Below, in pieces: positions 123 to 64,000 of a DNA stretch of 64,000 nt (its first letter is position 1; every line of letters starts with the position of its first letter). The DNA is from Raillietiella orientalis. Taxonomy: Eukaryota. The notes under the pieces were generated by a model. The model was not told the origin of the DNA. It was given only the letters and a program-made list of their open reading frames with translations, and searched no databases. The stretch covers positions 5,208,001 to 5,272,000 of the forward strand of contig JAYWIR010000003.1 of NCBI GenBank assembly GCA_036172245.1. The letters are read 5' to 3'. A program made the translations under genes and the position numbers.

Positions 123-779
123 TAAAAAATAAACATACATGTGCTTATGATATGTATTGATGTAATTATTATTGTATATATTCGGGATTTCGAACCAAAC
201 TCTTCTCCTTCTGCAACGAACTTGTTTCGAACGCTTGAGAGTTTTTGGAAGTTATTGGAACCACCGAGCACTCAGTTCAGTTCAATTGTCTGCAACAGCT
301 GTTTTCCAAATAACATGGCCGCCTCCACAGCTATCCTGTCATTCCACTGTAAGTTCGTAGAAGGTGGTGCTCTTCCAAAACAACTCCCACGTAAACGGAA
401 ACTGTCTACTGATCGATGGACAGTGATATTCTTTTGCAAACTGTTGACCACCCTTGATTTTGGAACGCATTGCACGTCGGTGGCCTTTCCTTCCCGGCCA
501 AACGAATCCGTAGGGACACGGGTGCTGGCACTGCCACCCTCCCTGTCGAGCTGAAAAACCAGATTCGCGCTATGACCGTCTGGAACCGTAATGTGGATGC
601 GAGAGTCGGCGCAGATCTCCATTTTAAAAACAGAAAAGAAGCTGTTGGACTTGAACCTGACCGTGCCCGATACCGCGAGGACGATTAATGGGACAACAAG
701 TCAATGCTGTTAGAAAAAAAAAAAAAAAAAATTAGCGAATGAATGGATAAAGCCCCGCCACTGTACCAAGTTCCTACAA

Positions 780-3299: not shown

Positions 3300-6230
3300 C
3301 CGTGGAGAAGAGGACACCCGCTGATCACTTGCTGCGTCCGGGACTCTTGTGCCAAGGCATCAGGAAGGCAGTGAGCATCGAAGTCGCCAACAGTTTCTTA
3401 GGGACTTCTTCTCCAGTTCGGAATGATTAGAGCTCTCTCCTTGGCCCGGAAGGAAGTCAGAGGGATCCTGAGGTGTCCGACTGCACCGCTGCGTGGCGGA
3501 TGGGCGACTGTTCCTTGCAGATTTTGGCCTTTGGTAATCAGACGCGTTTCTGCTGCCCCTTGGAACTATCTGCTGGGTTCTCGGAAGGAAATTTCAGGAA
3601 TGAATGCCTAGAGATCCATTTATGGATCATGGATCAGCTCTCTGGCAATCATGGACAAACCGACTTCAACAGATCATTCCGCAAAAACAAGATGGCAACA
3701 GTATGTAACTTTTGGAAGCCTGAGTTCTTGTTTGCCACAATGCCGGCCTCCCGAGATTCGAGGTCTTCCTCGTTCCCAAAGGATCTTCGGTTTTATCTGA
3801 AGACTCTCCTGTTAAGATTTTCGACGCTGACATAATGTGTGGCTTGAATGAAGAAGCGAGAAGCAATCTGTTCCTGAAGTCAACTGTTTCCCTGATACGC
3901 AGACTACACAAGCAGCTCATTCCTGAAGGAACCATGGAAATTCAGGTTCCAGAACCCTTTGGGAACAACCCTCTTGAAATGTCCTCTTTGTTCACGCGAA
4001 AGAATCTTTGGCATCAGCTGAAAGATGTATCAAGGGATGACTGAATGATAATGGTAAAAAGGGAGTTCAGAATCCATTCCTTGGATGTGTCCAGAAGAGT
4101 GTATTCCTGACTGCAAGGTCTTCTGTCGTCCCAAATGTAGCGCTTTTCTCTCGATGGTTGTCGATCTGGTATGTGGTTGAGACTGCTGAGGCTGCGTAGA
4201 AACTACAGAGAACCGCATGCCTTCGAACACATGCAGACGAATTCCTCTACATCTCGCCACAGGATCCTGTTTGACTCCAATGTCCAGACTGTGCAAATGG
4301 AAGGAGCTGCTGTCCTTATCTGGGTTTTCTCGTGAGAAGCGGTTCTCCCTCGGGGCACTGAGACTCCCTTCGAGGAGCTGGAGGATTCGCTGCTTTGCGC
4401 TTTTTTGTCTGCTCGTCGAGCATTGGTCTGCCACACCCCGATGCAAGCGAACAACCAGCCAAAGCCGGAAAATTCCTCTTAGTTTTTCTTGTGCTGCCCA
4501 AGAAGACCCTTTTTTAATGGGGTAGCATTCTCGGAATCGGTGCCCGCTTAGAAATCGGTGAAAGGGTGGTTAAATAGTGATTACATTTCCTGGATGATTG
4601 AGGGATCAGCTTTTACCCTCTAAGGTTGTTGGGACGAACCGATTCCACCAGATTCCAGATCTTGGGTTTCGTTGCGGTATCCAGGGCACCCAGTGCAGTT
4701 CGCAATCTCTGGTTCCACGTTCGTTGGCTAGGGTCGCTGATATGAAAACCGTGAGACAACAGGTCAGAGGAAGTTGAAGTGCCTTCAGCCATTTAAGTTG
4801 TCCATCTCACAATTATCTGTTGCTTCAGAAATGCTCGATTCATATGGGGAGCAGTTTGTTCTTAATTCCTTATTGGAAAAGCTATGATAGATTCCTCTGT
4901 TAAGGAGGAAAACCTTCTATCCAGACATCTGGACCCTCATTCCTTTCATTCGAATAAAGCAGCGAGATCGCAAATATTGAGCGTTACCATGGTGCGTTTA
5001 CGCTCTAGAGATTCATTCATAAAAGTAACGCCACTGCGAATTTTTATGAGCTGTTTTAGACATATAAAAAGTATTTTAGACGGTGATCAAAAGTGCTTCC
5101 CACGTGTGGAAATACTACTGCCGGAAGAGCCGGAGATTACAAAGTCCCCGCTGAATTTTGCGGGAGAAACAGAATGTGCAAATGTTTTCGGGAGTCTGTG
5201 CTCGAGACGTGGAGCATCCGTCCCGATTGCCGGTTCCCCCTTTCGTTTTCTTTCTTCCGGGTAAGTTCGGCCTGCTCCTTCCCCTACCTGTTTCCTCCTG
5301 GCAACAAGTGAGACGAAATGAAGCCTCGAAGTGCTCGCAGATTTACAAGATGGCTGCGAAAGCACTTTCCGAACCCGAAGCCTGCCATTTCCACAGAACT
5401 TCTCCTTGGACTTTCAGGCTTGTTCTTCGTGTGATGTTGGAAAAGTTACGATGCATTGAGAAAGAGATTGCATCCTTGACGGGGGAAACTTTTTATCAGG
5501 CCCCGGCAAACTAATCAAGAACTGAGCCATGCAACCAGAGTGGAGGTTGGCTCGCTTGAACGGCTCGCACAATTGCAAATGAGATGAGATGCTGAATGCG
5601 AAGGCCTTGCAATAATTCTGCCACCTTAAACGGCTTGGGAGAAGAGGAATCCTGCATCAAAGAGCGTTTCGAGACCGCGGGGCGAGCGCTCGAATCATGA
5701 GCGGAGGAACAGACCAGGGTCCACCGAAATGATGCTGATAACGAGTTTGCATTAGCTGTGAGCAGGTCAGTCGTGCTCGTGCTGCAGACGATTTTGAGCT
5801 TCCATTTGGTGCGAGCAGAGAAACGCAAGTGCTTGAACGGGAGGTTTTCATTCATGATTCGGGTTGGCTGCCCAGGGATGAGGAGGAAGAATGCAGAATG
5901 GTTTCGGAAAAAGGGAGAAAAAAAAAAAAAAACGGAAAGTGTTGCAAAAGACTCCTAAATTTAATCAGGAATCTTCTAAAGATTGTAAGATCCTGCAAGG
6001 ACAATCCCCTCGATGCGTAGCAAACACTTTCTTGCGCTTTCCCGCCCACCACGGAACACGGAAATTCCACGATTGGCTTTCGTTTCGGTGGTCCACAGGT
6101 TGTTCAGATGCTCACATCCTGGATGATAACCGCAGCACGAGATCCATTTCGACAGATGAAACGTCCGTAGCCTTTCCTCATAAACGGACGTGCTACGAGC
6201 CGAAACAGCTTCATTTCATATGGCCTTAGT
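3300..6230 (+). mobile_element. Decayed R2/NeSL-type non-LTR retrotransposon fragments
   Basis: Frameshifted RT-like segments around 3900-4450 and a CCHC-like GRNRMCKCFRES at ~5160. Heavily interrupted and probably more than one element. Confidence 0.35.
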
Positions 6231-14050: not shown

Positions 14051-15499
14051 AACAATGAAGTCTTTAGTATAACGCGAAAGAATTATTCGTTAGAATGGGG
14101 ACAGTGAAGTAAAGGTAGAAGGGAGTTATCGCGTGCAAAACGTCCAGAGATGGAGGAAGAGAACACCTCGCGTCCTTCATGGTTTTATTTTCATTTAAGA
14201 TATCATCATTGCAGTGCCAACTTCATCTTTCGACGGAAGGTTGCTTAGCAGTTGCTGAGCAACCTTCTTTTTCTCAAAATCAGCACTCAGGAACTCTTGC
14301 CCGACCACTAGCCCAATTTCCCTTTGGCAGTCTCTCCATTAGTCCTTAATTTAGCAGTGGAACTGCATCGTCTTCACAAATGAAGCAGCCCACTCTCCTT
14401 TGGCCGCATGCCAAAGTGAAGTCCAAGTCAGCATTCGGTTCACTTTGACAACCTTGTGCCCACTTCTGCTCATTCTCAGCGCCGGATAAGTCGGGCAGGA
14501 GCTCCCGGAAGGGCGTGCCGACCTGCATCCATGGAAGCCGAAACCATTCTCAGTCACCTCCGTGACGATCCAATGGACTGCTCACCAGGCGGCGGCTCAT
14601 TATTTCAGCAGGAGGAGGTGCTGTGACCCATTCCGCGTCTGCTTCATGTGTCAGCTTCCTCGGCGCATCACACGCAAGCGAAAAGAGCCACAGAGGTGGA
14701 AAAGAAACAGGTACAAAGTACACAGAGATACAGCAAGAAAAATAGCCGAAGGAGATTGGTCACGTATGCTTGAAAGACACTCGTCGCATCGTGCGTGCTC
14801 CGTACACAGCCGATCCGTCGAAGCTGCATGAGCAAGGAGATAGGAAGCTCTGGGCTACTTCGAGAGAATTAGGAGCGTGTGCAGACTCGGTTTGGGATGC
14901 GAGAAATGCGAGTCCAGCTCATGACGAAAGGAGGAAAGAGGGTGCCTGGATCTGAGCAATTATGTCATAAGGAGAAGCTTTGGATCAGATTCCCGGGCTC
15001 TGGAGGGTGCGAGGTGCTTCCCGCTCCTCCCACGTCGACTTGGAAAGTGTCCAAGCAACGTGCAGACGAAGAGCTTCGAGGCAAAGAAGCCAAAGGAACG
15101 GCACGCTACTAGCAGCAACCGCCCCCGGATTCCACGCGGGGCATTTTCGCGCAGTGGTGGCCACTGATGAATAACACGACTTTTCCGTCTTCAACTGGCG
15201 AAGGCGACAGTTTGTCACAAGGTCGAGGCATGGTCCAGGCACGCTCGGTAGGAGACGAAGCTTCCGGTGTTCTCGATGAAGCTTCCCTGAATCCGCCTGA
15301 GCAGCGTCCACCATTCACGCAGGAGGAGGAAGCGCTGAGCTAGCGAGCATGATCGCTGGAAAAGCAGTGAGAGATCGGATTCCTCCTACGAGATGGAAAA
15401 AGGGGAAGCGACACCACCACCAGGGTTCCGCCAGCTGACCTTTCAGCCACACCAGAAAAATAACTCTATTTGCTCCTAATAAGGAAGCAGCGTCGACTC

Positions 15500-17250
15500 A
15501 TGCAAATTACCAAGCAGCGGCTCACCAGCGAGGCGCACCGTTCGACATCCATGACTCCCTCCCATCTTCTGGAGCTCGTCCATTCCCAAGCTCCCGCCTG
15601 CCCCATCTTGCTGCTCTTCGCCTACGAACCCGGATCCGCACGTAGAATTCCGTGAGAATGGAATCCTGGAAAGTTCCTTCGAGACGGAATGAGCTCTCCC
15701 GCCACCGCAGCTTAATCTTTCCGAGAGAACGGGTTCTGACAGCTCGAAATTGCATTCCGTTTTCTCGCTTCGCTTTTCGGCAGGGCGAGGGAGACTCGAA
15801 GGCCTCGTAATTGTGGACTCGATCTTTGACTCCCGTCCACCCGCAGAAGTGCTTTGCAACGTCTCCGGAAATGAGGTTCCAGAAAACGAGATCCCCCGCG
15901 CATGTTTGCGGGCGCTTTACGCAGAGAGGTCGAAGACAGGTGTTTGCGGACGTGGATTTCGAGGTCGGCGAGAGCAGCTCAAGTGCGTTCCCAGTCCGTT
16001 GCTTCTCCCCGAGAGCTCAATACGAAAGACATCCTCCTTTCGTGCCAGCACGCCGCATTGCTGTGGAGGAAGTCCACCCGGAAACGCGAGGAAACGACGA
16101 GTTGCGTCATCACTTCGTGTCTCTGTCGCTTCCATTTCCCTGCCATTTCCCTTCCACCCCCTCATTTCATCTCCGCCGCAGCGCCGCGAAAAAGTGGGAA
16201 CGGTTGTCGTCATTTCCGGAGAACGCTCCATCGCTGGCGGGAATGGATGCGCAGCTGCGATCACGAGGAAAAGGGGGAAGACTCACCCCGTTCTGCGCTG
16301 ACAAAGTGGAAGAGTGCTCTTTTACCGCGATTTTGCTGAGTGATCACCACGAGCGACTGACGTGAGAAAGGATGGGACATGGCGTGGTCGTGTGCGACAG
16401 GACTTGAGTCCGAGTGATTCTTTTGGATAGGGGGCACCCCGGGATGGAGGTCCGCCCTATGAATCTAGGAAGGGATCGGAGTCCGTTCCTCTCACGCTTA
16501 GGGCACCTCCCACCCTGGTTGTCTCCGAAGGGGAACCGGAAGGGAATCTCCTTCCTCATTCTCTCCGTAGGGACACCCTCTCCCTCCCTAATAGGGAGGG
16601 GCTGTCCTCTCCATTTCAACTTCAACGAGAACCCGGAAAGGATCCGCTAGTAGGAATTTCTTCTTCGCAGGGAACCCGCAAGGGAACCGCTCCTGTTCAC
16701 TCCTCTGAAGAGAACCCCGAAAGGACGCTTCCGAAACTCAGAAGGGGCGCTGCAGCTTCCCGCAGGGGGATCGCTCTCGCTTGCTTCCTTGCACTCTTCT
16801 GGAGAGGCGGCGACTCGGAGGGTCCTCCCGCTACAGAGGGGAGTCCTCTCCTTCAAACAACTGGAGAGGAGCCTGTGGAGACTCCTGAAACTCCTTAAAT
16901 ATCGAAACCGGAGGGGTCCCCCCAGTGAGGGGGTCCGCTCTCCGTTGCACGACCGGAGGGGGAATTCCCACTCATCGATTCCTGGAAGGACCCGGAGGTC
17001 TCCCATTGTTCGGCCTTCATAGGGAACCTTTGGACTAATTCACCGCCGGTGCCACGCCCGAATGATTAGCCCAACCAGAGCCATCTTGCAGGAGGAACTC
17101 GGAACCCAACGACGCAGTGGCGTCAATTTCTGCCGGAGTATTCGAACCCGCGACGCATGGTGCCACGCGCGGAAGCCTTAACCACAAAGCCTCCGACGCG
17201 GGCCATCTGTGTGAGACAGGGATGTCTTTCCGTTGCTCCGTGACCATGTA
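15500..17250 (-). mobile_element. Decayed copy of the GC-rich gag-like repeat family
   Basis: 16425-16490 (gatagggggcacccc...ggtccgccctatgaatctaggaagg) aligns by eye with 49412-49475 (gataggggggttcccc...ggtccgccctatgaatccaggaagg). Confidence 0.4.
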
Positions 17251-21400: not shown

Positions 21401-22200
21401 CAGATTATAGACTCATCCTTGTAGCAAAATTGAATTTTGGCATCCCATCAGAGGAATTGCTAGAAAGAAGGAAGCTGATCGTTCGTGCCTTTGCTGTAGG
21501 ATGTGGGATGAGACTTTGCCTCAGGTAACAAACCATCGTACCAGGCACTCCCGTCTCTACACGGCGAGGCGTGATGCGATCGTGAGAAGGATGCGAGTCC
21601 TGGAACGGATTCCACTCTGTGTCTCGATGCAGTGCTGCAGAAGGGAAATAAAGTTATGCTGATGGATGCTTGCTGCCATTTCGAAAGTAGCGAGGAAGCA
21701 TTCTTCTCCGGAAAAAAAAGAAGATAAATGCAGAAATCTTGACCGATGGGGTCAGCTTGCGGAGATTCATGCATTCATTCCTGGCCCTTTGGGATCACGG
21801 GACAAGCGTAACGATGCAGTTTTGCGAGCAATCCGAGTTCCACGAGTATCTGTAGACAAGATGCGCTTGTTGATGGCTTCATTCTGTACCGCTATACTCG
21901 AGGCATTCCTTGGACGCATATACTCAGACATCTTCCGGATGAACGCCAGCGGCGAAGCCATTCCTCAACAACATCAATAGCACGATGACCACAGAGACAT
22001 AGCAGAGCAGTTAGGACATCTCCCAAACAGCCATGGGAGCAGAAACCAGATAGCAAGACTTTGCAGATGGTGGAGAGCCCTTCATGTCGTCATTGGTGCG
22101 TTACATTGGTGGTAACCGTGATTTAACCCATTCATGTTCCAATATGATTGTTTGTTTAGTTTAAGAAAAGCACTTATTTCGAGATTAAAAGATTAATGAA
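18400..22200 (+). mobile_element. Near full-length decayed RLE-clade (R2/NeSL-like) non-LTR retrotransposon
   Basis: Motifs in order: N-terminal RTEFGHEASVVTLLF; RT GVKQGCP (~20083), ANADDLIILA (YADD, ~20178), NPKKC, YNYLG; PDQGKAM (~21315); RLE segment AFIPGPLGSRDKRND (~21770). Confidence 0.8.
21045..21278 (-). mobile_element. 234-bp insertion with 9-bp target-site duplication inside the retrotransposon ORF
   Basis: AAGAAAGTG at 21036-21044 and 21279-21287. Removing the insert and one copy restores TLRNLQQESARQSLTGAHPDQGKAM in frame. Has a minus-strand A-rich tail and two stem-loops. Confidence 0.8.
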
Positions 22201-22449
22201 ATCCATCCTCTTTCCTCTTTGGGAACCTTCACCACCACCAAGAGCCCTACACCAAAGGTTCCCATGACAAAGATACGAATTCTACCTTCGAAGTAGCTTT
22301 TGGGTCCCTCTTCGTCTCCTCAGAAGTCCCGTTCGTGTCTGCAAACCAACGAGTTCCGTTTCTTTTTCTCTCTCTCTCTCTCCTGACTCGCGTGAGTTTG
22401 CACGCAGCGTTTTCGAAAAGAGTCCTGTAGCCCGGGCAGTGCAGGAAAC

Positions 22450-23700
22450 TCCTTGCATTCCACGAGAAGAGCAGAGGAGAATCACAGCGTCCTCCATCTT
22501 CTTGCCTATGCAGGATGAGTTGGCGATCTAAGAGGATGCTGCAAGCAAGAGCGGCGTTTCAGAAACGTCGTTCTCTGGATTCCGTAATTCCCTGTACCGG
22601 AATCCTTTCGTTCCCATTGGAACCTGCGTTTCCTAGAGCTCAGGAAGGCTTGCCGGAAAAGATAATAACCACTTTCCGTAACTTGGAAACTTGAAACCGG
22701 AACCACCATGCCAGGGACATCTGCTCTTGCAGGCTGCGTTGGAACGACCGAGAACGACTGCACTTGGCGTTTGGGGAAACCGGTTATCCTTCCTCCCCCA
22801 CCATAGCTCTTTCTCTGACGTTACCTTAAGACACATGTGGAAAAATGTCGGGTGCTCCCAAATCCTCTCAGGATACCACAGCATTCTAGGAAACAACTTC
22901 GTGCTGTGCCTCATAGACTTTGCGAGGAAAACCTTCGATTCTGTTGACCAAACCCTACTTTTCAAGATTTTGGGGAAATGAGCCTCCAAGGGAAATTCCT
23001 GGAATTTGCGGCGGTCTTCCCGGAAGAAAGGCAAGGCCTCCGTCCGGAAGTGGAAATGATCAACTACCCAGGTTACTCCGACGATCTGCTCTTCATCATG
23101 GCTGATGAGAAAGATCGGAAGGCGTTTCATCCATCTCAGAATCCATGAAATACGCGCTCGAACTTGAGATCAAAGCAGCTGCACGCCATTAGACTCTCTC
23201 ATGTTCAGGATAGTGGCCATCAAATGTAAGGGTGTCCAAGTTGGCGATGAACAGGCGTCGGTAGCGGAAGGACGGTGCAGGAGATCCGATAGGAAGTGAC
23301 TCAGTACAGCGGAACAAACTTTCCATTGAAAGAGAAAGCCATACAGGGGAACGGTGTGCCTGCACCCATGTTCTGTTAGCTAGGTCTTCTATAACATTCC
23401 GGAGAAAGAGGCCAAGCATCTAATGGACTCCCCAAAATCGTCAGTATAGAGAAGTAGCAATCCTCGGCTGAAGGTAACGTTCCTGTGCAGGAGCGGAATT
23501 TACTTTGAGTCGAAAAATGCCGGTTGCATACTCTGCGGAGCTCCAGGAGCTGCGGTTCTCCAATGCCTAGGAAAAGTGGAATGAATGGTATTTCACTAAG
23601 CCAAGGAAAAATGGCTCAACGTAATCGACATTGTGATGTCAGTCCCGTCAGGGATACCAGGACGGTGGCGGAAAGTCAATAGACTTGACTTCGGCGAGGA
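22450..23700 (+). mobile_element. Decayed non-LTR retrotransposon RT fragment
   Basis: LCLIDFARKTFDSVDQTLL at ~22903-22960 matches the DFxKAFDSV RT motif. The rest is frameshifted. Confidence 0.45.
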
Positions 23701-23769
23701 ATGGAAACCTTGTCAGAAGAACCAACGCGAAAGCTGTCCGGAAGAGTAGGGTCCATGAAGGGTTTTGAA

Positions 23770-24420
23770 GTTGGTTTCAGCTGTAAATGATGATCAGTAA
23801 TGAGGTAGACTATAAGTTGGGTTATATCTTTATGTTCGCACAAATGCTGTGGATGTTTACTGTAGTGACTGGAAGTTGATGAGAGAGGTGAGGGTGTTGA
23901 TATTAGTTGTGGGTTCTTTGAGAAGTAGGATGTATGGAATATTGATGAATGGATGAGTGAGCTATAGGAAGTATAAGTATGGTTGGTGTAGAGCGTTGTA
24001 TAGCTCCGATTATTTCTTATGATGCATGTGTAGTTGCTTTCTTAATAAGGGTGTTGGTTTATCTGGAAGGATATGGGTTGATCTTAAGAGTGAGAATGGA
24101 GATATTGTTGTCGTTTGTTGTAAGTTAAGAAAACTGTTATCTGAGTTATTGTGTGCGTTGGTTCTATGATTTTTCAGAAGGGGAATCAGATTCGGTTATT
24201 AGATATAATGTGGAAAGTGGGTGAAGGGTGTTTGCTCTGTGCTTGTGTGGAGTATGTGATTATTTATTATGCAGTAATTACTCAATGGTTGCTCATGGAA
24301 AACGAGATAAGGAGTTAGAGGAGTTTGATTGGTTCGATTGTTTGTATGTGATGGCTATGTTTTGGGTATTGGCCTATTTCTGGATTGATAAGATGTGGAA
24401 GCAGGAGCAATTCTAAGTGG
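23770..24420 (+). pseudogene. nad1: NUMT: nad1 remnant
   Basis: In the invertebrate mitochondrial code: GW..SKY/SMVG..R..APIISYD (~23951-24023; cf. [24 protein letters not shown]) and YDFSEGESDSVISYNVE (24165-24215; cf. FDFAEGESELVSGFNVE). Strong G+T skew. Confidence 0.85.
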
Positions 24421-24429
24421 CTACTCATC

Positions 24430-24900
24430 CTATTGATGAATAAAACCGATTTATTGTATGATCATTGAAGCTAGCGTGATGAGAGTGGGAATAATAGGAA
24501 AAACATTAGGCATAAGATTGATCCAGTTGGCAGGAGAACAGAGGCAATGGTTTGTGTTCCTAGACCACCTAGAGGATGGAGAAGGATAGTATTGATAAAG
24601 AGAGAATTTTTTTCAATGAGTAGTAAGCTGATGATGGAAAGGGAGAGGGGTAATTTACAAAAGGGGAGAAAGGCTAAGATCCGAAAATCGGATCAGAGGG
24701 CAATGCTCCTAGTTTGTTGAGCTAAATAGTATAAACAAAGAGGAAATATTCAGGTTGGTGAAAGAATCTGTTTGGAGGAAATCAAAGTATATGTCAATTA
24801 CAACTGTTAATCAGATGAAATGGTGGCTACAAATTTGAGCGTGATGCTGGAATCAAAAAGGTTTCCTCAAAGCAATGAGATAATGTGCTGGCTGATCAGA
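24430..24900 (-). pseudogene. nad2: NUMT: nad2 remnant
   Basis: Minus strand, in order: YFL (24740-24750; cf. KYFL), KLGALP (24698-24715; cf. KLGAAPFH), LGGL (24561-24572; cf. SLGGLPP). Confidence 0.65.
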
Positions 24901-24949
24901 GAAATCGCAGAGAATAGGTTATTAATAACTGTAGCAGCTCAGAAAGTTA

Positions 24950-25560
24950 TTTGTCATCAGGAAAATTGACAATTCCTAGGAATGATATTGTCAAGACGAT
25001 ATGGAGATGTCCTGATGTGCAAGTTAGAATGGTTTTGTTGGAGTAATATGTTAGTGCTCAGAAGATCTGAAGATAAATTGAGAGGAAAAGCAGTTGGGGT
25101 GCATGCAACACAGAAGTCAGCTGTTACTAGTGCTGTGTGTGAGACTAATGTTGAATATGAAGGATTTGGGGGTATGAGGAATACAGTGCACGTAAATAAT
25201 GATTTCTGTATTAGGAGAATCTCTACAAATTATCCAGGATTTAGAAGTAAGAGATACGATAAGAACATTGATTATCTATAGACCTAGAGTCTTAGGGATG
25301 ATGTCACATTTATGTAATAGATTGTTTCCATTTAGCATGAGTTCATTGGGGAGATTATTATGTACTTGAGAAGGATGAGAGGATGATACGTATTGTAGTT
25401 TATTTGGGTGCATTTACATTGTTGGAAAACAGATATAGAGTACATGGTGAGTCTGATGACTCCTGAGATTATAGTTGTTGGGAAACTAATAATCAAAGGT
25501 TATATATTACTGTTTGGGATGTAGTGGTGAGACTAATGAGCATAATAATAGTCATGGATT
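24950..25560 (+). pseudogene. NUMT: eroded mitochondrial rRNA sequence (rrnS, probably running into rrnL)
   Basis: aaggatttgggggt..gaggaa (25160-25181) and ggatttagaagtaa (25237-25250) resemble conserved 12S blocks in the right order. The 16S resemblance further 3' is weak. Confidence 0.45.
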
Positions 25561-25629
25561 TCTATCAGAATAGTTTAATGAGAAAGCTGATTGTAGTATT
25601 CCACATGATTTATGTCTTTGGCTTTTGTA

Positions 25630-26740
25630 ATGGTCTTGGTTGCAGTAATGACTGCAAATGAGAAGGTTGGTGGGAATGTGCTGAGGTAGGTTCTTGATGA
25701 TAGACTGGATAATTGTCAAGATATGAGGGTTAGAGTGAGATGTAGTGTTTATATTGGATCATGAATATGTATTATTTATGGAATACGTTTTGGTATATCT
25801 TTGTTAGCATTGTTTTCTAGTTGAAAGGGAATTAGATAAATATGAGGAATTGTATTACTTAGGTGTTTGGGTTTGTGCTGAGAATGATAGTGGTAATTAC
25901 TGGTGGGAGGATAGTAAGTCTTATTTAGAGATGGGATAGATTGGGAATTATTTTCTCTTGTTTGGTTATTTTTTAAGTACGTTGTGGTTCTGGTTACAAT
26001 GGAGAAATTACCTTTTAGGTAATTATGTTAATGATAGAAATTTGTTAATAGGTGTTGATTGAATGGTTGTAAGAGGTTCTTTGAATTATACATTTGTGAG
26101 TGCAGATTGATATTTTGGAGTGGTTGTCTTGATGGAGGTGACTAAGCTGTCATTTAGTGCGTGGTTTCTGGAAGCTGTGGTGCCATGTGCACTTATGTTG
26201 GCTTTGGTTAATCCATCTACTCTGGCTATTGCAAGAGTTCATGGATTTATTTGGTGATTCAGTTTATTGAGAGGTGTAAATGAGGTAGGAAGGCAGGAAT
26301 GATAAGTTCTATTTTGGTGTATGCTGGTATTGTGATGATGGCATATTCATTATTTGTAGGTAGGCAGAAGTTGATATGGAAAAGTTCATTGCATATTCTA
26401 TATTGATGTGGTCAAGGCAATTCTCCATTCTGCATTCTACTTGACTAGGGATGGGAATAAAGGTATGAGTGTAATATTATTTATTGCTTTATCATGCATT
26501 TCTATCATTACTGTTTTTATGAATAGGGTTGGTGATTCACAGATGTGATAAGAGGCAGGAATTGTATCATATGGGAAGAATAGGGTGGTAACACATGTGT
26601 TAGGGAAATTTATACGGTTAAAGAATAAATTTATAACCCTGAAAGACTGAGAGGATTTCCTTTTCTAAATAGATATTATAGGAGAGATTATGGATGGAAT
26701 AGGTGTGATATTCGACGTGGGCTGACATTATTCAAATAAT
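25630..26740 (+). pseudogene. nad5: NUMT: nad5 remnant
   Basis: WDSLGIIFSCLVIF (~25932; cf. LGWDGLGLVSYCLVI), TKLSFSAWFLEAVVP..LALVNPSTLAIA (26141-26233; cf. [35 protein letters not shown]), DMEKFIAYS (26373; cf. DLKKIIALS). Confidence 0.88.
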
Positions 26741-27779
26741 TGTAATTGTTTAGAGATATCAAATGAAAAAGAGATATCAATCAATGAAAGAATGTAATAA
26801 ATCAACGAGGGAATATTCTGCTGGCACGAAAAGACTGGTCAATGAATTGAATACCTTAGATACAAGAATCAAGAACCTTGCTAAGAGAAGAATACAATAT
26901 TGTGAGACGGACAGCGATAGCAACATGAAGCCAGATTCGCTGTCTCTGTAGCAAAGTAAAAATACAAAAGCAAAAAGACTGGAAAAGGATAAGAGAAAGA
27001 AATAAAGCTGGCTCACTTCCTGTTGACAGCCATAAGAATCAGGGCAGCACCATGAAGCGTTAATTGGTGCACCAACTAAGCAGAAAGACAGATCTTGCTG
27101 TTTGTCGAACATCTAGACTTCGTCTGCATGCAAGAGATCCACAAACTAATGACAAACACCCAACAACAGTTCTTCCAAAATTGAGAGCCTTTTCCTAGAC
27201 AGGCAACCAAGAAGAGCAAAGGCATGACAACTACCAACGTTGACTGCTAAACAACCACTTGCCACCAGGAGGTCGGATTGATAGTCTTGAAGATATCCTG
27301 GTGTAGAAACAGCCCTCTGTGCATGGTTAGCAAATATGCACCAGAGACCAAAAATTCATAATGAGTACAAGTTCTGTAGACAGTTGTAGTAGACTGTAAA
27401 GTAGGGGCACTACCAATGACATCCTAGTCGCCTTGGCAAATATGAACCGGAAGCATTGGAGCACAAAGAAGTCGATTATGTATCGGCAAATGGTGAAAGT
27501 CATGTCGATCAACTGGATTGAGAACATTGGCACACTGTATGAGCTCATTCCAAGAGATAAAATTTTCCACCTTGGAAAACCTCCAGCCTAGCGTCGATAT
27601 CAGGATGGAAAATATCTGAAGAATGTACTGAAAGAAAGGATGTGCTCTTGTGCATGCCTGGCTGGTAAGAGACCTACATAGAGAAACATTCAGTGATGGA
27701 AAGTATTCTGGAAACTACTACCATTACCCAGGTGGAAGACTGTGGCAGGATGAAGAAGGTGATTCATCTGTGCCCTGGC

Positions 27780-28250
27780 TGAAATGTCAGAGAAGATATC
27801 TTCCGATAGAGTGAATGGAAAAGTAAGTTTGTTGGGAGAATGGAACTTTGAGTTCCAATATACTGATTATTCAATACAATTTTTGCAATGCTCAATGTCA
27901 AGGAAAATAAAAGCAGCATTCATGCAATACTACCATACATTCTTTCATCGCAAATTACTGTTACGATGCACGGTTTCAGCTGTACATTTACAATTACATG
28001 ACAAACAGACAACTGCTTACGTGCTTACATGTGGAACAGAGAAAAGATCATAATCGTCGACCTAACAAAGGACAACCAAGAAAATATCAATTATGGACTA
28101 ATCGAAACCCTAAAAAACGGAATATGTTCCACGAAATACCAAGGACACGTCCAACTCTACGATCGTCCACATGTCATCTTCGCAAACGTGGATCCAAATT
28201 ATGAAAAAATGAGTTCAGACGGTTGGATCATTCATTTTATAAATAACCAC
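27780..28250 (+). pseudogene. Endogenous viral element: CRESS-DNA-virus-like Rep, SF3 helicase domain
   Basis: IIIVDLTKDNQENINYGLIETLKNGICSTKY...PHVIFANVDPNYEKMSSDGWII gives Walker B, B' (STKY), motif C (VIFAN) and the Arg-finger position (DGW instead of DRW), in nanovirus/alphasatellite/smacovirus-type spacing. A degenerate Walker A region (DYSIQF...SRKIKAAFMQYY) lies upstream in another frame. Confidence 0.8.
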
Positions 28251-31200
28251 AACAAGAAAAAGACAAACGTGGTACATGAGAATTGTACTCAAAAAACCTG
28301 GAACTCTGGGTACAAGAACTTGTCAATCCACAGCGCAGTGCCCAGTATGCAAAATCAGTTGGACCATATAGGAAGAGTACGAAGAATTCGTTTAAGAAGG
28401 CAACAGCTCCGAATCATAGCTGTATGCAAAAACACGCTTAAGGGTTGCGCCAGGAACAAACGTAGAGAGCCAAAAACGTTAACTGGATCCATTAAGAATG
28501 AAATCTTCGCAGGATCCAGGCGTGAACAAGAAATTCTGAAACAGCATCGCTAAAGCTCAGAGTCTTTGGCGCCAACCTGCAGTTGGATCAACTCTCTAGA
28601 AGTCTCATGCATCGCTGCAGTTGGAGGATGACCTAATTACGTTCCATCAAAGTGATCTACTTTCTGACTAAGCCTCTTAACAAGGCATCCACTTAAGCAA
28701 TGTTGCCTTGCGTATAAAAAAAACGAAGCAATGGATCACTTGTTCACTTGACAGACCACGTGCAAAAGTTGCAAATAATCAAGGAACCTTCCTATCTGGG
28801 GACAAAACTAGGAGTGAAGTACAGTGTGCTGTTAGGGGGAAAAGGGAATGTTCTTAACGCAATCCATGGTGAAAAGCACACTCGCTCTCCTCGTCACCAG
28901 CATTGTGATCAGAAAGGCAAAGCTGAAACAAGAAAGACATTTGACAGCGTTGCATATATGACGGTATCAACGAACCATGAAATAGGACAGATGCGGATAG
29001 ATTCGTGCATAGATCTACCGTTGCAATTTTCAGAAAATATCAAGCATTTTGGGAAGAACATGAAGTAAACAAAGCTAAAGCATAAGAATTATCAAACACA
29101 CTAGAAGGGCTAAGAGTTTTTTTTCTTTGATTTTTTAAATATCGAGACGATAACTCATTCTAGCACCAGTTAGATTCGAGAAATGATGTTCGATCCGAAT
29201 ATTACCATTATATTGGCAAATAAATATTGAATAGCGAAGTCTAACCATGCCAATAGAATTTATTTTATTTTTTCAATAGAGAAAACGGCACCACGATCAA
29301 AGGTCTTGCAGATGCATGGGTCCACTTCTTAAGTTTTTCTACAATATTCTGGAAGAAATTTATCTGAAAGCATTGAACTGCAGGGAACAATTCCAGACTG
29401 GCGTTGCTACTGCACGCCGAAGTGTGCATGGCTTCCTGTCCTGAAACGCCAGAGTTCATTTGGCGATCAGAGAATCGTTGGAAGCCGGCAAGGAAGCAAG
29501 TTTCTACTGGATCCTCACCTTGTCACTCTGGTTACAACAGTGAACATACATTATAAAAACTAAGTTCCTCCTGGAAATAAAAAAAAGGTTCGTACGGGAG
29601 TGAAAGCCGTCTCGTAGATGGACCGTATACAAGGAACAGAATAAAGGAGAGGGAACAAGAAAATAAAAATGGAGGGAAGGAACAAGAGACCTTGTATCTA
29701 TGTGTAGCCATCTCACTTCAGTCTGCATCGTCTACTCTGCAAGACGAATTGCGTGCCTTTGTTTCTGCTCAAGCTGCTGAGCGATTCAGGCCGCAACGAT
29801 GCCATGCAGTGGCAATCACGGGGAGCATTTGGGAGTCCACCTCTTGCAAAAATGCATCGTCTCAAGTTTCTAAGATGCCTCCCAAATAGAACAGCGCTCT
29901 TGCCAACCTCTGTCAGATGTCATAAAGAGCATCACACTCCATGGGCAAATGCAGGAATGACTCGAAAGCCATGCACCTAGAAAGCGTCGAAGAAACGCGT
30001 TCCCCAGACACAAGGTGACGACATTCACTCCACTGGAAAGGCAAGTCCAGAAGGAGCACCACCTACTGCTGCCGTTTCAAGGGAGTACCGGAGAGTCCGC
30101 GCACAAGGCAGAGCCCGCAAGTTCTTCAGAGAGCACACTGAGTAGTAACTAATGTGCTCATTAATTAGTTAAGCTCGAGAGTGGTTCACCTATCCTCATT
30201 CAAGATACTGCAGTAGGTTATCAAGAGCGCGCAGAAGTGACTTCAGAGTTCCACTAAGCGTGGAGTGTATTTGGACGTTTGTTTGGTAATACGATCTTCT
30301 AACGAACTGCAGCAGGGAATTCTGCGCGTTCCTGTCACGTCAAGTACATGTAGTCCAGGATAACACGCCATCCGTTGATGCGATCCGCTCTCCTCCCTAC
30401 TGCTGGTTCATGGGTTCCGAAATGGAAAGTCGAAGGGAAAATTCTGGAGGTTTGGTTGATTTGCAGATGAATCCTGTGAGGGAGGAATTCCGTTCTTTGA
30501 AGAGTCGATCGCTGTTTCGTTTCGCTTGCTTTGCACTTCCAATCCAAGATCCGAAACATAGACGCAATACACCATTTCCTCTAGCAGTCTCACTGAATTC
30601 TGGCCGGTCATCTTCTTGAGAGATTTCGCTCTTTTGCCTTATTTTCGAAGGAATCCTTTGTTCTCTCATTTGCATATTCTGATTTCGCTTGTGGATACTG
30701 CTCTTTCAACTTAGAAAGACTCCGTTCCGGTATGTGCACATGATGCTTTGTTTTTTTGTTTCGATACCTTTGACCTTGGCTTGCTCTGGAGACCTTGCAC
30801 AAACGGATAGACATGCAAGCGGAAGTGGTCCTTCGGATTAAAACAGATAAAGAGCCCTAAAGGAACGCAGTGCACCACATCTGAATACGAAATGTTTTCA
30901 CTTTTTGCAAAGCGTAGTGGAAAGTATCCTGGAATCCCACGTCACGAAACTTCAAGGTCGACCGGTATTCAACGTGTTGGAAAACAGTTCTTGTGATTGT
31001 CCTGTCTTTTCTGATTGTCCTGTCTTGAAACGACGAAAAAAAAAAACGTGCGAACACCACACTGCAATCTTTATTAATCAATGATTGACATCATTTCATC
31101 TGTACGTTTCTGTGGCAAACACTTTAGTGTTCTTAAATGACTTAATTGCACTCTTGAGTTCATCTGAGCTGGTGACATGCAGTAATAACCATCTATCCTT

Positions 31201-33235
31201 CAATAATAAAGTGTTTTTAATACTAAGATTTCGTCTGTGTATGCAACGGTAAATGCTTTGCTTGGAAATTCGCATGCCATGATTCCTCATTCTCACTTTT
31301 ATATGCTCACTGGTTAACCAAATTAATGGAAAATTCCATTAGAGTCTGTTTTGTTGGAGCCAAGGTCAAGAACTATAAACTCATTTTCAGCAAGCAAAAT
31401 TACAGATTCATAGTAGATGATCTAAGAATCATTAGAATACTTCCGTATGTCTCTCCAAACAAGTTGAGCGTACACCATTTAGCAAACATTGATGTTATTC
31501 ATTTCTATTAATATTCACCAAATACAATATCACTTAAATGAAATTGTGGCATAAAAACGCATTAAAATTGAGACTAATATAGCATATACTTAGAGATGAG
31601 AGCCATATGTAGTGTAGCCATTATGCTTTTTAAATAAAGTTTTCAAAAATTCAATATGCTTGGTGATTTGAAGTCATGCAGCTCTAAATGCAAAAGATGA
31701 TTAGAAAGAATAAATAGAAAATAATCCAAATTTACTGAACCCAAAAAACAATGATTTGGTTAAGCATGTGATATAATGAAATAAAATGTATGGCTTCCAG
31801 ACTGATACAACTCAAATTTAAGTAAAATGACACATGATGTCGTTTGTAGCTGAGTGGAAATACAAAATCATGTTATGCATAAAAAACGTGAACCAAATAT
31901 GAATTATCCATATGAAATGTGTTAAACATGAATTAAGACTCAATCTGACTTCATACAACAAAAGAACCACTTGAAAGTAATATGAAGTGTTAATACAAAT
32001 ATACCATATGAAAATCCAGCAAAACCTCGAGTCTTCTGTTTCATATACCACGAATTCCATATAATGTTATTGAATAAAAGTTGTGCTTTTATTCACATGC
32101 TCTTTACAATTGTAAACAGTGTGCATGCACTGTTTGTAATTGCATTTCTGTAGTGTTCATGAAGCAGTTCAGTTCAATCGGAGGATCCGAGATGTTTAGA
32201 TAACTTATTAAAAACTACAGATAATACTTTAAAAAAATTCGAAAAATATATTTAAGCAAGAATTGATTAGTTAGTAAGAATTAATCAAAAGCAGAAAATA
32301 TTGAGGAACCTCAAGGAATTCTCATGAAATAAAGCTGCTACACTAATTTACATTTGTAGTAGTTCCCAGACCTTTTTAAAATGCGAAAATGAAAATACCT
32401 TTGTATGACTGTGATTGAAATTATTGATTAAAGTAAAACAAAAAAAACTTGAAAAATTATAATGAAGACTTAGATTAGATCAAATAAAAGAAATTTGGTG
32501 GAAAAGTATACTCATGTTACCAATGAAAACTAAATCTATAATGAAAAATGAAAATGAAACCCACTAATTTCAGCAGCATGTTCAGTTTTAAAATAAGATG
32601 GCACAATTCAATATAATGACTGTATTAGGAAACAAGACAATAGCTTATTAATAAAAGCCATGCTCAGAAGAAAGGCAATAACTACTTGAATTATTAAGAA
32701 TGCTAAAAGCTTTTAACAACAATTAAAAATGGCATATATTTAATAAAAATATACAAAAATTGCAAGACATAAACAAACTCTGTGATGATCACATTTGTAT
32801 TGCATCACTTCAAACACATTTGATGTTTCTAGAAACACATATATGTATTTTGGTATCCTATTATGAATAATGAATTACCGCTGCACTGATCAGTCTTGAG
32901 AACTTCAATATCATTAATCACAAAATTTAAATCAAATTATCACTAAAATTTCTGTTTGCATGTTTTCATATCTTACATACCTATTCATTTTGATTATTAA
33001 GAACAACTTGATATCTCAGGATACATAATGAAAAAATCCAGATTATCATATATTATACCTGCTACCACAATTCTGCCTTACTTTAAACTGATTAGGCATC
33101 CCCCAAAACTCGCTTCTATTAAAATGCAATTTGCTATTTTTGCTCTTCAGACTCTAGATAAACACAGCATCAAATGAACTGCAATGCAGTGATAGTATAT
33201 ATTTGAATGCTCTGCAGATACCTTATTACTAGTGG

Positions 33236-35159: not shown

Positions 35160-37129
35160 GTTGCACCACCTGCGACGTCAGACGTACAACAGCGCTCCAG
35201 AAATTGACGATCAGTTGCCTATGTAATTCATTCACGAAACTGAAAACTTTCTTACATAACTTGGCAATCGTGCAAACCACACTGATGAAGGTATACAGCA
35301 TAAATAAAAACTAGCACTGCGATTTCATACGATTTCTTTTCGGTTCATGCTATTTATAAAAATAATCATGTAGATACTGAGCAATGTAACATTAAATTAA
35401 ATAATGAGCTATTTGCGCTTAATGAATGCATGCAATTTTCAAATACACGTTCTTAAAGGCTTCTACACTACATTGTTCCCTCAAATTTTCCGTTTTTTAA
35501 CCATGTTAATATACTGCTGTTGTGGATCTTAAGAAACAATATTCAGCTTTTATATAAAAAATAATTACTTTTACACTCGATTATTTTGAAGTACTTAATG
35601 TATTACTTTATTTTGAACTTTAAATGGATTTTACAGACTATTGGAATAAGACTATTTTTTTTTTCTTAATTGAGATAGGATTTTAAGACACATATGTAGT
35701 CTCTGCAAGCTCAAATGAAATCATTCATCCTTGACTGAAGCACACAAAGATACAAGATCAAAAATATGTTAATCAAAAACCTTGGAATATTTTAATACTA
35801 TGATACCCGTGCTTATTAGTTTTGTTTACACTTATAAAAATAAAGTATTTTGAGCTTTGTTGATGTAAGATTAATGCAAAAAATATGTACGAGTGAATTA
35901 TAGACAATCTTTCTAAGCTAAATACAAAGTTTTAAACTCGTTTTTAAACTAAATAACTAGCTTTAAACTAAAAGTTCTCACATTCAAATAATAGTCATTT
36001 TGAACACAATATCATGTTGTTATCCCTCAGAGTTATTTAAATGAAAGTTCATTTAGGAAGTTACTTCTATGGAGAAAAAACCTAAATTTTGATCAAGAAA
36101 ACATAGAGAACATCTAACTACACAATAAGAAATGCAAAGACAACCTATGTTTTTCAATTCATTTCTCAGATCACGTGGCAAATGTTCCAATAAAATGAGT
36201 AGTTTCATAGAGGATACTTTTTAATCCAAGTGTATTAAGGGCACAACTACTCGTTGCATAGAATGAAATCTAAAACATTATCGAAGCACATACGAATAGA
36301 ACACTACTACAAACTATCGATTCATCTTGACTGCACTTACATAGATTGTATTACTGACCCAATGTAATGATACTCTCCAAACGCTGAGTGGGTTAAATTA
36401 CAGCTGAGTTTAAATCACAACATTTGTTGCAAGTGACAATCATAAAACAAAAATCTTTCAAAGTTATAAAAGAATTTGTACATTTCTGATGAACCAAAAC
36501 TGAAATTTATTTGTGTTCGCACAGTCGATTCGAGCAATCAAAATCAATATTTATTTTCATTCCCATTATTTGATAATCATTATTGATTAACATACATAAA
36601 CTCTCAAATTTAGTTGCTAAAGGATTTATGGTGGTAACGGGAAAAGCAGTGTATAAGATCGCTGCGTTTGCTTGGGTGAGCTTAGGTAAGGTTTCTGCTG
36701 AAAATGGCTGCATTTGTGCATAGCGTTTGAGAGCATAACTTATCATATAAACCATTGGCTTTGCAAGACAGTGCAGTATATTTATATGCTTGTATTGCAG
36801 CAATACAAAAAGATCCGTTATGATGAGTGTAGACCGTTTATTATAGCAGGTGTGTTCTAAAAATTCACAATTTGTGTTTGAGCAATAAACATAGGTAATG
36901 TTTTACTTGCATTGGGGGCAGTGGGAAAAAATAGTTTGAAATTTTGAATTGTTTGCAAAATTTTTGGAAGAGGGTGCGACTTGTTTGTACGAATCGCATT
37001 CTCTCAACGCAGTTTAAGTGTTGATTTAAAAGTTTAGTGAAAATTGAAGTGGTAGTGTTTTTACTAAATGTGTATCGTGTCTTTGATAGGAGAAGTAACT
37101 TAAAAGAGTTAGATTTTTACGTAGAAACA

Positions 37130-40071: not shown

Positions 40072-41698
40072 TTATTTGGCGTTTTTTTGCCATGGAGGGC
40101 TGCAAGTATCCAAGATATCCAATAGTTCACTTTCTCCAAGTTGGAACTCGCTCTCCTTCCATATTTCACGAAGTTTGTTCATAGCCCAATTCATATTTTT
40201 GGGCCCTTTAATGCCTTTTTTCAACAGTGTGTGTCCACTGATGGGAAAACGGGGAACAGACCATGCTAATAATGCATCATTGAGGCCTACTTCTCCACGA
40301 CTGAGAAACAGCTGACATATTTGCAGACGATATTCTTCTTGCCTCTGTTTAAGGTCTACTAATCTTTCTTGGAAATACCTGGAGACGAAGCTGACGAACC
40401 TCTTATTCTTACTTAACACTTACCTCAGATTCAGAGGAGTTTTGTGCATATGAGAAACTAGAAAAAGTCCTAAATCTCTTTCAAAACAGGACATATGTAA
40501 TCGATTGTGCAGTTCCATCATCTAGTATGCTTGTGTTAAAATGACCACGCAGCAGGCCACCCAAATTCACCTCAGTGTCATTATGCAATAGAGTTGATAG
40601 CCAAGTAACAGGGTGCAGAAACTGCCCATGCTGCTTCTGATGATGACAAACGGAATCGAGATATTCTGTATCCACATTAAGAGGCAAGCCCATTGGAGGT
40701 CCTAAGCCAAGAGCAAGCATGGTCTTCAGTTGCTCTGCAGGAGAGTATCCTTGCAAAATGCGTTTCAATTCACTCCAAATGCGCTCTCCTGATATTTTGA
40801 AAAGTCCGTCTCTATTCCCTTTAATTGATTGTAGGATAATATCCGAATGAGGATGGGGATGGTCCCAAACAGTACCAAAGAACCGGAAATACCTCAAGAT
40901 ACGTAAATAATCTTCTTGGATGCGTTCATTCGGATCTCCTACAAATGTTATTATTTTGTTTTTTATATCTTGGAGTCCTCCAAAATAATCATAAACATTG
41001 CCATATTCATCTAGAAAAAAGCATCACAGAGTATGCTCCAGTCTGGATCCTTTACCTAGAAACATGGCATTGATAGTTAGATCTCGACGAGCTGCATCCA
41101 ACTCCCAGCTAAGCGTGAACTCAACCTCAGCATGCCGTCCATCTGTGAAGCGGTCAATTCTCAAAGTAGTCACCTTGGAGTGTTTGATCTTCATTTCATA
41201 CATTCATCTTACTTCGAAATTGGCACAGTCATTAATGCGAACAGTGATGGTGCCATGTCCTTCTCCTTTGGGATTGATCATTCGAATTGATTCCTTAGTA
41301 AACATTTCCTTCATTTGAGTTGGAGTGGTAGGTGTAGCAAAATCCAAATCTGTGGGCATTTTATCCATAAGTAGATCTCTGCAGCAAGTTTTCCAAACTG
41401 GTCAAACACATTTACATTACCTTACTGCTCCACCAGCAAAACGCAATTGGAAACCATGACTGTGAAAGACTTCAAATAATCTTTTCAGCTCTAATGAAAA
41501 AATATTTTGGAAAAGAGGTGTGGTCAACTTGATAACCTGAAGCTGAGCCATCATCCGTCTGCTTTTTTGATTTTCAAATGAATTTCTATATGTATGAACA
41601 AAACACCACAGTGGGCATATTTTTAAGCATGGTATTTCAGTCAACAGCACACCACAAGGAACATGCAAGAGCAGTGCAGAGCTCTTTGTCCAGCGCAT
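40072..41698 (-). CDS. TRNT1: CCA-adding tRNA nucleotidyltransferase, 6 exons, ~468 aa
   Basis: Exons 41698-41421, 41378-41213, 41173-41056, 41010-40571, 40521-40424, 40378-40072. Motifs [71 protein letters not shown]. Confidence 0.97.
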
Positions 41699-63938: not shown

Positions 63939-64000
63939 CTGAAGGTAAGAACATCCTCTCCCAGTCTCCCAGCCGGATGTTGGTTCTGGAACGGGGACTG

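Follow-up and report, generated by a model that had tools for sequence, protein, structure and literature searches.

A disrupted CRESS-DNA virus Rep helicase segment in an arthropod-like genome, probably a 5'-truncated viral fossil

Introduction

Excerpts of the survey by Dennis et al. (2018, J Virol, PMC6069186) describe rep-derived elements, short fragments included, in many invertebrate genomes. Complete Reps of uncultured Cressdnaviricota (P0003, P0010 and P0102 in our searches) contain nuclease motifs I-III, a W-Q linker and Walker A. The Rep of porcine circovirus 2 (PCV2; PDB 7LAR/7LAS, ATPase 8XMS) belongs to the same overall protein class as the relatives of the segment described here. 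A helicase-only relative, the predicted protein P0014 (CAI9729859.1; E 2.0e-11), lies in an invertebrate chromosome, on a 100-Mb record of Octopus vulgaris; both its W-Q linker and its Walker A (G-N-S-G-K-T) are intact.

Here we describe a related segment within a 64-kb stretch of DNA, which was analysed as a whole and is referred to as the window. Like the elements covered by the excerpts of PMC6069186, it is a rep-only fragment in a large invertebrate contig, diverges strongly from the classified families and lacks a cap part; whereas many of those elements have intact frames, the surviving helicase half comprises only ~75-115 codons and lies 1.2 kb from a probable mitochondrial insert. It lacks the nuclease motifs, linker and Walker A of the complete uncultured Reps, and it starts later than the Octopus protein and is broken. 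We consider it, with a probability of about 0.8, to be a 5'-truncated, non-functional fragment of a CRESS-DNA virus Rep that entered an arthropod-like germline by illegitimate joining.

Table 1. Positions of the Rep-derived segment and of neighbouring features in the window.
Feature	Position	Strand	Remarks
Stop-to-stop open frame	28002-28553	+	183 codons; C-terminal half of CRESS-DNA virus Rep SF3 helicase
Rep-derived core, pre-Walker B through motif C to S-x-D-x-W	28023-28244	+	Supported by phmmer, profile, tblastn and invariant columns
Widest frameshift-aware alignment to the Rep profile	27941-28355	+	Profile positions 215-349 of 365; 150.4 bits
In-frame TGA	27999-28001	+	Interrupts the helicase frame after the expected Walker A and before Walker B
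Expected Walker A stretch, same frame, 5' of the TGA	27867-27998	+	Doubtful N-K-S instead of G-K-S/T
Best upstream nuclease match	26766-27011	+	Profile positions 62-139; Y-C-E-T opposite motif III; not convincing
Upstream A-rich, CpG-poor stretch	26751-27940	+	CpG o/e 0.37; no detectable homology
Downstream A-rich stretch	28356-29100	+	CpG o/e 0.76 (normal); no Pfam domain, nuclease match or origin stem-loop
Strand-biased block	23751-26750	-	Plus-strand C 9%; ends where the region singled out by the sequence-only reading starts
Cytochrome b relic	24828-24962	-	Invertebrate mitochondrial code
TRNT1 exon	40481-41023	-	49-54% identity with proteins from termite, cockroach and spider
Much weaker helicase-like relic (first of three)	260-434	+	
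Much weaker helicase-like relic (second of three)	3537-3709	+	
Much weaker helicase-like relic (third of three)	36691-36935	-	

Results and discussion

The relationship to Rep rests on an exhaustive phmmer search with the translated 183-codon frame, the only direct search of this frame to yield useful matches, which returned 1489 proteins at E<=1e-3, 24 of them at E<=1e-10, and a best value of 3.7e-26. Viral_Rep (PF02407) is present in 11 of the 15 top matches scanned and RNA_helicase (PF00910) in three of the 15. Searched alone, the frame gave no useful match in Pfam, NCBIfam, the PDB (phmmer), a word-index protein search or an IMG/VR pattern scan. A profile constructed from 86 full-length relatives matched it with an E value of 8e-35, and it was the only frame matched among 3189 six-frame pieces of the window. 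The best match, P0001, was rejected as a specially close relative, as this protein, from a 3.9-kb MAG-labelled contig, contains the helicase twice in tandem, and the high score adds up both domains, each 42-43% identical. Rolling-circle transposons likewise combine an HUH nuclease with a helicase, which is the attraction of deriving the segment from a host transposon such as a Helitron, or from a host helicase gene, rather than from a virus. We give this origin next to no credence: the Viral_Rep domains of the top matches are of the circovirus or nanovirus type, seven of the 14 top matches looked up lie on records of 1.4-3.9 kb, and neither the frame nor its neighbours match a host helicase family above the Pfam cut-off. 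Whereas Helitrons pair the HUH domain with a Pif1-like SF1 helicase and occur in many copies, the helicase here is of the Rep SF3 kind, and no meaningful direct or inverted repeat or self-match of the region was found within the window.

The core retains the motif order of the family, in which the pre-Walker B segment is followed by the N-Y-G..K-N-G..K-Y block, motif C (F-A-N) and S-x-D-x-W. The sequence-only reading had placed these SF3 motifs at 28040-28240, and all of them fall inside that range, from the start of IIIVDL at 28047 through NYGLIETLKNG, STKY and VIFAN to the end of DGW at 28226, with homology far beyond chance. The Walker B aspartate, the N-Y-G..K-N-G..K-Y block and motif C all align with family order and spacing, and 11 of 11 invariant columns in a 25-sequence alignment are kept. 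By tblastn the core is 37-51% identical to five relatives; the same range holds from Walker B to S-x-D-R-W for P0003, P0010 and P0102, which share its order and spacing. The sequence-only reading called the motif spacing typical of nanovirus, alphasatellite and smacovirus-like Reps, and the motif pattern presumably resembles that of nanovirus Reps. The widest frameshift-aware alignment contains one frameshift near 28008, and its outer parts are low in information. In the predicted structure, residues 10-90 are folded (pLDDT 73-89) and residues 94-170 disordered (pLDDT <50). Foldseek gave no match to this model in the PDB at E<=0.001 (best E 6), and the best VIA-align result was Rad50 (Z 3.6, rmsd 2.8, 64 aligned), with generic P-loop halves only. 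The relatives' profile matches the nuclease domain of PCV2 Rep at 2e-27, the best stretch being positions 7-154 only; the helicase half of that protein is too divergent for a sequence match, the window's frame alone has no PDB hit, and the fold match to the PCV2 ATPase is weak (8xms_A, Z 2.3, rmsd 4.6, 81 aligned, rank 34).

In a helicase tree of 151 sequences and 77 columns, the sisters of the window's sequence are P0102 (support 0.65) and P0030 (0.85). Its terminal branch measures 0.33 as compared to a median of 0.40, indicating that the retained helicase is not especially decayed. A few relatives are labelled only Cressdnaviricota sp. or Cruciviridae sp., and the N-termini of the tree-nearest P0102 and P0030 join the ordinary Rep nuclease family.

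The segment appears to be non-functional, judging by an in-frame TGA, the missing Walker A, two replaced arginines, two one-codon deletions relative to its relatives and a tail predicted to be disordered. Walker A (G-x-x-G-x-G-K-S/T) is unrecognisable and was not aligned by the frameshift-aware profile, and the middle part of the Rep profile scores 16.9 bits on the stretch where it is expected, which is not significant (44 of 200 shuffles as high). The near-invariant arginine of S-x-D-R-W after motif C, which we take to be the arginine finger, is a glycine, and the near-invariant arginine after Walker B is a lysine. Reading the TGA as tryptophan would open 27810-28553 (247 codons), but this was rejected: the added part has no significant Rep similarity, and the TGA aligns with positions that are never tryptophan in 24 relatives. 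The open frame itself is mildly unusual in length, as 11 of 1000 dinucleotide shuffles contain one as long; being longer than the neutral expectation, it could mean a recent insertion or some constraint. This length, together with the folded core and the normal CpG level, would fit domestication of the helicase remnant as a host gene or exon. We assign domestication a slight chance, since the loss of Walker A and of a conserved arginine rules out an ATPase, half of the frame is predicted to be disordered, and there is neither a start context nor an upstream coding signal; the tail also has no homologues apart from low-complexity matches. Most likely, the long open frame is a remnant that no longer works as a gene.

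No HUH nuclease (motifs I, II and III) was found 5' or 3' of the helicase or elsewhere in the 64 kb using HMMER (3189 pieces), Pfam (6, 99 and 14 frames), a frameshift-aware profile and hypermutation-tolerant scoring, and the sequence-only reading had likewise found no convincing HUH motifs upstream. In 282 window tiles the nuclease core (profile positions 21-115) never scores above 24.4 bits, as compared to a null maximum of 26.0, and nothing was found 3' of the helicase (26.4 bits; three of 100 shuffles as high). The best upstream match scores 29.5 bits (p ~0.01), and scores as high occur in two of 200 and one of 200 block shuffles. With 1-2 of 200 local shuffles as high, its Y-C-E-T site may be a badly decayed nuclease remnant. 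Such a remnant would fit the supposition that the insert was originally a complete rep gene or virus genome whose 5' part, upstream of 27940, has since decayed, been rearranged or been interrupted beyond recognition; the doubtful N-K-S at the expected place of Walker A and the A-rich composition common to 26751-29100 fit this as well. Insertion of a whole rep is nevertheless unlikely, as the 29.5-bit score is exceeded by four of 210 control tiles elsewhere in the window, the Y-C site lies ~1150 bases before Walker B where ~440 would be expected from the profile, and, with a helicase branch that is not long, uneven decay would be required. The CpG content of the two parts also differs, as described below, and hypermutation-tolerant scoring finds nothing: a nuclease hidden by G-to-A change in the A-rich block or by C-to-T change in the C-poor block was rejected, the scores being reached by shuffled sequence in 59 of 60 and 15 of 60 cases. 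A second, more decayed helicase copy that seemed visible by eye at 27250-27900 was likewise discarded, since its 17.8 bits were matched in 38 of 200 shuffles and in 87 of 378 tiles.

Other viral parts were also sought around the segment. An origin stem-loop with a nonanucleotide (e.g. N-A-N-T-A-T-T-A-C) was absent from 25000-31000, where nine loose matches had a longest stem of 3 bp, and no capsid family in Pfam was found in 22500-31500, where 99 frames reach a length of 45 aa. A single-protein scan with P0003 supplied 17 related IMG/VR contigs, and scans of the same kind with P0102 and P0030 gave no match. Compared with these 17 contigs by tblastx, the locus matched in the helicase only (L007, 5e-9), all other rows having E>=1.3, although capsids are too divergent to be excluded in this way.

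The sequence upstream of the helicase is most likely not part of the Rep gene, judging by its composition and its lack of similarity to any known domain. The 26751-27940 stretch has no Pfam domain and does not significantly resemble Rep in any of its parts, and no Pfam family exceeds its curated cut-off in the 99 frames of at least 45 aa from 22500-31500, nor under the mitochondrial code. The CpG o/e ratio is 0.37 upstream as compared to 0.87 from 27941 on (18 vs 42 CpGs), and the jump at ~27940 coincides with the start of homology. The sequence-only reading had described a ~1.8-kb A-rich block ending at 28560; the A-richness is real (A 0.35-0.39), but it runs unbroken from 26751 to ~29100 or further. 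Its continuity across the proposed breakpoint would fit a single inserted unit. The nearly open upstream frames to which that reading pointed do include one at 27400-27591 (63 aa), but frame lengths are at the level of chance, the longest in the stretch being 111 aa on the minus strand, a length reached by 228 of 1000 dinucleotide shuffles. These observations bear on the further proposal of an undescribed element whose N-terminal module, other than HUH, is encoded in 26750-28000. An HUH domain is indeed undetectable by any method used, and shuffling of the nuclease and helicase halves of Rep is described for uncultured CRESS viruses in the excerpted text of PMC5923481. We see only a very slight chance of such a module, since the upstream 1.2 kb contains no domains under either code, no frames longer than chance on either strand and no Rep similarity, and differs in CpG; short, broken frames that lack a signal are to be expected of unrelated DNA. 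The relatives also argue against it, in that 11 of the 15 close ones scanned carry Viral_Rep and the N-termini of the tree-nearest two belong to that same family.

The strand-biased block that ends at 26750 is probably a decayed mitochondrial insert (NUMT), as suggested by the cytochrome b relic inside it, which matches Pfam PF00033 at E 1.4e-7 (32 bits vs a cut-off of 27.2) and for which all 32 PDB matches (best 7.1e-6) are to cytochrome b. ND4L and other mitochondrial genes were not confirmed in this C-poor block, no tRNAs were found, and 14 frames of 26700-28050 contain no mitochondrial genes under table 5. The strong strand bias beside the Rep relic would reflect a mitochondrial insert and not hypermutation. 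The host appears to be arthropod-like, based on the similarity of the TRNT1 exon to arthropod proteins; the virus-derived, disrupted and truncated rep is contiguous with this exon and with the mitochondrial insert in one 64-kb window. A low-coverage DNA run (0.10 share of words) supplied two 151-base contigs identical to 28866-29016 and 29066-29200, and otherwise two short partial matches of <90% likeness, leaving the Rep segment without cover. No RNA sequencing runs sharing the window's words were listed. The window contains no Rfam families, and 22000-32000 no tandem repeats.

Returning to the truncated fragment that we favour, we infer that illegitimate, non-homologous joining placed part of a CRESS-DNA virus (Cressdnaviricota) rep gene in the host germline. 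The insert would comprise the C-terminal SF3 helicase from between Walker A and Walker B to approximately the end of Rep, and the nuclease half would either never have been inserted or have been lost at a breakpoint at ~27940-28020, as opposed to decaying in place. Truncation is favoured over decay because the helicase branch is not long, yet similarity vanishes within ~100 bases; the change in CpG across ~27941 and the ordinary nuclease domains of the nearest relatives argue in the same direction. The fragment would since have persisted as a non-functional relic in the host genome, and the A-rich sequence upstream would be unrelated filler or older host or repeat sequence.

Conclusions

Homology and host setting together support the initial identification of a fossil Rep helicase from a CRESS-DNA virus in an invertebrate genome. 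The relic is an ordinary fossil, comparable viral fossils being already well known in invertebrates, and it carries a caution: where a preserved domain adjoins sequence that cannot be recognised, truncation of an insert is a simpler explanation than a new architecture. More speculatively, and with low probability, the window could be a graveyard of foreign DNA, a break-repair hotspot or piRNA-cluster-like locus in which Rep and mitochondrial fragments were captured together or successively. If so, the three much weaker helicase-like relics would stem from earlier captures of viruses of this kind, and the locus would record repeated exposure to CRESS viruses and might feed a small-RNA defence. 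For CRESS-DNA viruses, whose hosts are mostly unknown, the segment adds one more host-linked data point, as it suggests that an arthropod-like animal at some time acquired, in its germline, a Rep from an unclassified lineage.

Identity of the helicase frame

The helicase motifs picked out by the sequence-only reading are all present, and in the order it gave, in a plus-strand frame (28002-28553) that runs for 183 codons without a stop. This frame found nothing in Pfam, NCBIfam, PDB by sequence, a word-index protein search or an IMG/VR pattern scan; phmmer run exhaustively over 1.84 billion representatives returned 1489 proteins at E<=1e-3, of which 24 reached E<=1e-10 (best 3.7e-26), with all matches confined to frame residues about 8-100. 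When the 15 best matches were scanned with Pfam, Viral_Rep (PF02407) lay ahead of the matched region in 11, RNA_helicase (PF00910) was additionally present in three, Gemini_AL1 was sub-threshold in one, and three had no Rep family. At E<=1e-10, a profile from 25 relatives recovered 328 proteins; the few that have names are Reps labelled 'Cressdnaviricota sp.' or 'Cruciviridae sp.', most of them from 1-4 kb contigs. Against solved structures, the profile matched the nuclease domains of circovirus and nanovirus-type Reps (7lar_A, 2e-27), and the window sequence retains 11 of the 11 invariant columns of the alignment. Because of the phmmer and profile matches and the Viral_Rep domains in the relatives, identification of the frame as a CRESS-virus Rep helicase is secure. 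The top database match (P0001, 354 aa) consists of two tandem helicase-only Rep copies joined through 90 residues of linker without a complete nuclease domain; its source is a 3.9-kb contig carrying the name of a bacterial MAG, and it is probably either a viral concatemer that was mis-binned or a relic from a eukaryote.

Features located in the window
Feature	Position	Strand	Details
Candidate helicase relic	260-434	+	35.2 bits; in-frame K-L-S-T-D-R-W
Candidate helicase relic	3537-3709	+	31.4 bits
Cytochrome b relic	about 24828-24962	-	invertebrate mitochondrial code
Walker B-like I-I-I-V-D-L	starts 28047	+	frame 28002-28553
Motifs after Walker B, in order: N-Y-G-L-I-E-T-L-K-N-G, S-T-K-Y, V-I-F-A-N, D-G-W	D-G-W ends 28226	+	
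Candidate helicase relic	36691-36935	-	28.9 bits
TRNT1 (CCA-adding tRNA nucleotidyltransferase) exon	40481-41023	-	180 codons

An AlphaFold model of the frame, computed from a 71-sequence alignment, folds residues 10-90 (pLDDT 73-89) and leaves residues 94-170 disordered; the long tail of the 183-codon frame therefore looks like read-through, not a domain. Fold searches with the modelled frame gave weak, generic P-loop matches only.

Extent and lesions of the Rep segment

A Rep profile was built from 86 sequences of 270-400 aa among the 150 phmmer matches listed, the rest being excluded by length and P0001 because of its tandem structure. Run over 3189 six-frame pieces of at least 10 aa from the whole window, it scored a single piece, 28002-28550 (HMMER E 8e-35, profile positions 239-342 of 365; next best E 0.18). 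When the profile was aligned to the DNA with frameshifts allowed, the match grew to 27941-28355 (profile positions 215-349, 150 bits), which leaves Walker A (profile 209-214) outside. An in-frame TGA occupies 27999-28001, and upstream the same frame offers at most a doubtful N-K-S for Walker A. On 27300-28035, the middle part of the profile reached only 16.9 bits, equalled by 44 of 200 local shuffles. Within the well-matched helicase part there are two one-codon deletions, and the near-invariant arginines after Walker B and in S-x-D-R-W are replaced by K and G, respectively. Both stops in the 64 codons preceding the open frame are TGA, and reading TGA as Trp produces a 247-codon frame (27810-28553, +); since the stretch gained in this way is not significantly similar to Rep, the TGA-only stops are probably coincidence, though curious beside a mitochondrial insert.

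The profile's helicase portion was also run over the whole window, frameshifts allowed. Three weak loci emerged that may be older Rep relics, and we list them as candidates only. Among 3384 tiles from 12 shuffled windows, three score 28.9 bits or more and all stay below 35.2; by HMMER alone the candidates are not significant (E 0.18 and 5.7).

Search for the HUH nuclease

The best match of profile positions 1-214 (nuclease and linker) lies at 26766-27011 and scores 29.5 bits, with Y-C-E-T facing motif III. This score was reached by none of 60 whole-region shuffles, and by 2 of 200 and 1 of 200 shuffles preserving local composition; among 210 tiles from other parts of the window, 4 exceeded it, and the site is ~1150 bases ahead of Walker B versus ~440 expected. 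The nuclease core (profile 21-115) attained at most 24.4 bits over 282 window tiles, and 846 shuffled tiles peaked at 26.0; a nuclease search downstream (28300-31000) gave 26.4 bits, a score that 3 of 100 shuffles also attained. Hypermutation masking a nuclease was considered by codon scoring that undoes G-to-A or C-to-T changes, and nothing appeared in the A-rich block (26751 onward) or on either strand of the C-poor block just upstream (23751-26750). The profile, shuffle-control and hypermutation-tolerant searches bear out the earlier statement that no convincing HUH domain lies upstream. No Pfam family exceeded its curated cut-off in 99 frames of at least 45 aa in 22500-31500, no nonanucleotide origin stem-loop was found in 25000-31000, and a tblastx comparison with 17 related IMG/VR genomes returned the helicase alone (L007, one of these contigs, 5e-9). 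The 'nearly open frames' noted upstream are of chance length, the longest (111 aa, minus strand) being equalled in 228 of 1000 shuffles.

Truncation or decay

Three lines favour truncation: branch length, CpG contrast and the N-termini of relatives. In a 151-sequence tree, the terminal branch of the helicase block is 0.33 versus a median of 0.40; the retained block is not unusually diverged, yet similarity vanishes within about 100 bases. The CpG observed/expected ratio is 0.37 in 26751-27940 versus 0.87 in 27941-29100 (18 versus 42 CpGs in near-equal lengths) and 1.12 within the Rep segment itself, so the sequences on either side of ~27940 differ in their history. With the N-termini of the tree-nearest relatives, P0102 (support 0.65) followed by P0030 (0.85), a local iterative search converged on the usual Rep nuclease family. 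Running counter to truncation, A-richness is unbroken over the ~27940 junction, and in 989 of 1000 shuffles no frame is as long as the 183 codons seen here. The sequence-only reading had suggested a possible different N-terminal module, which finds no support: these relatives have ordinary nuclease N-termini, and the upstream region has no Pfam domain or beyond-chance frames. Chimerism between Rep halves is described in PMC5923481, and nothing in this window requires it.

Host setting and probable mitochondrial neighbour

The host is an invertebrate. The TRNT1 exon is 54% identical to a termite protein, 52-53% to cockroach proteins and 49% to spider proteins, with no closer relative among the best named matches, and identities of just 49-54% indicate that the host lineage is sparsely represented in the database. 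The 3-kb block 23751-26750 has 9% plus-strand C, a GC skew of about +0.5 and a CpG observed/expected ratio of 0.33. Its cytochrome b relic matches Pfam PF00033 (E 1.4e-7, 32 bits versus a 27.2 cut-off), and the PDB matches, 32 of 32, are all to cytochrome b. From this sequence evidence the block most likely represents mitochondrial DNA inserted long ago (NUMT), the source of its strand bias; it ends exactly at the left edge of the region first singled out, thereby explaining that edge. Elsewhere, GC-rich islands (1000-3000, 15000-17000 and 58000-64000; 56-62% GC) hold many long chance frames, and the remainder is 31-48% GC.

Relation to endogenous Rep elements

The Rep segment appears to be a dead fragment without a working role; homology places it in the Rep helicase family, but it does not pass as a complete Rep. 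A helicase-only relative is annotated on a chromosome of Octopus vulgaris. Endogenous elements derived from divergent CRESS-DNA virus Reps are documented across many invertebrates in PMC6069186, where 60 of 93 sequences are estimated to be endogenous, all being rep, none cap, and some short fragments.
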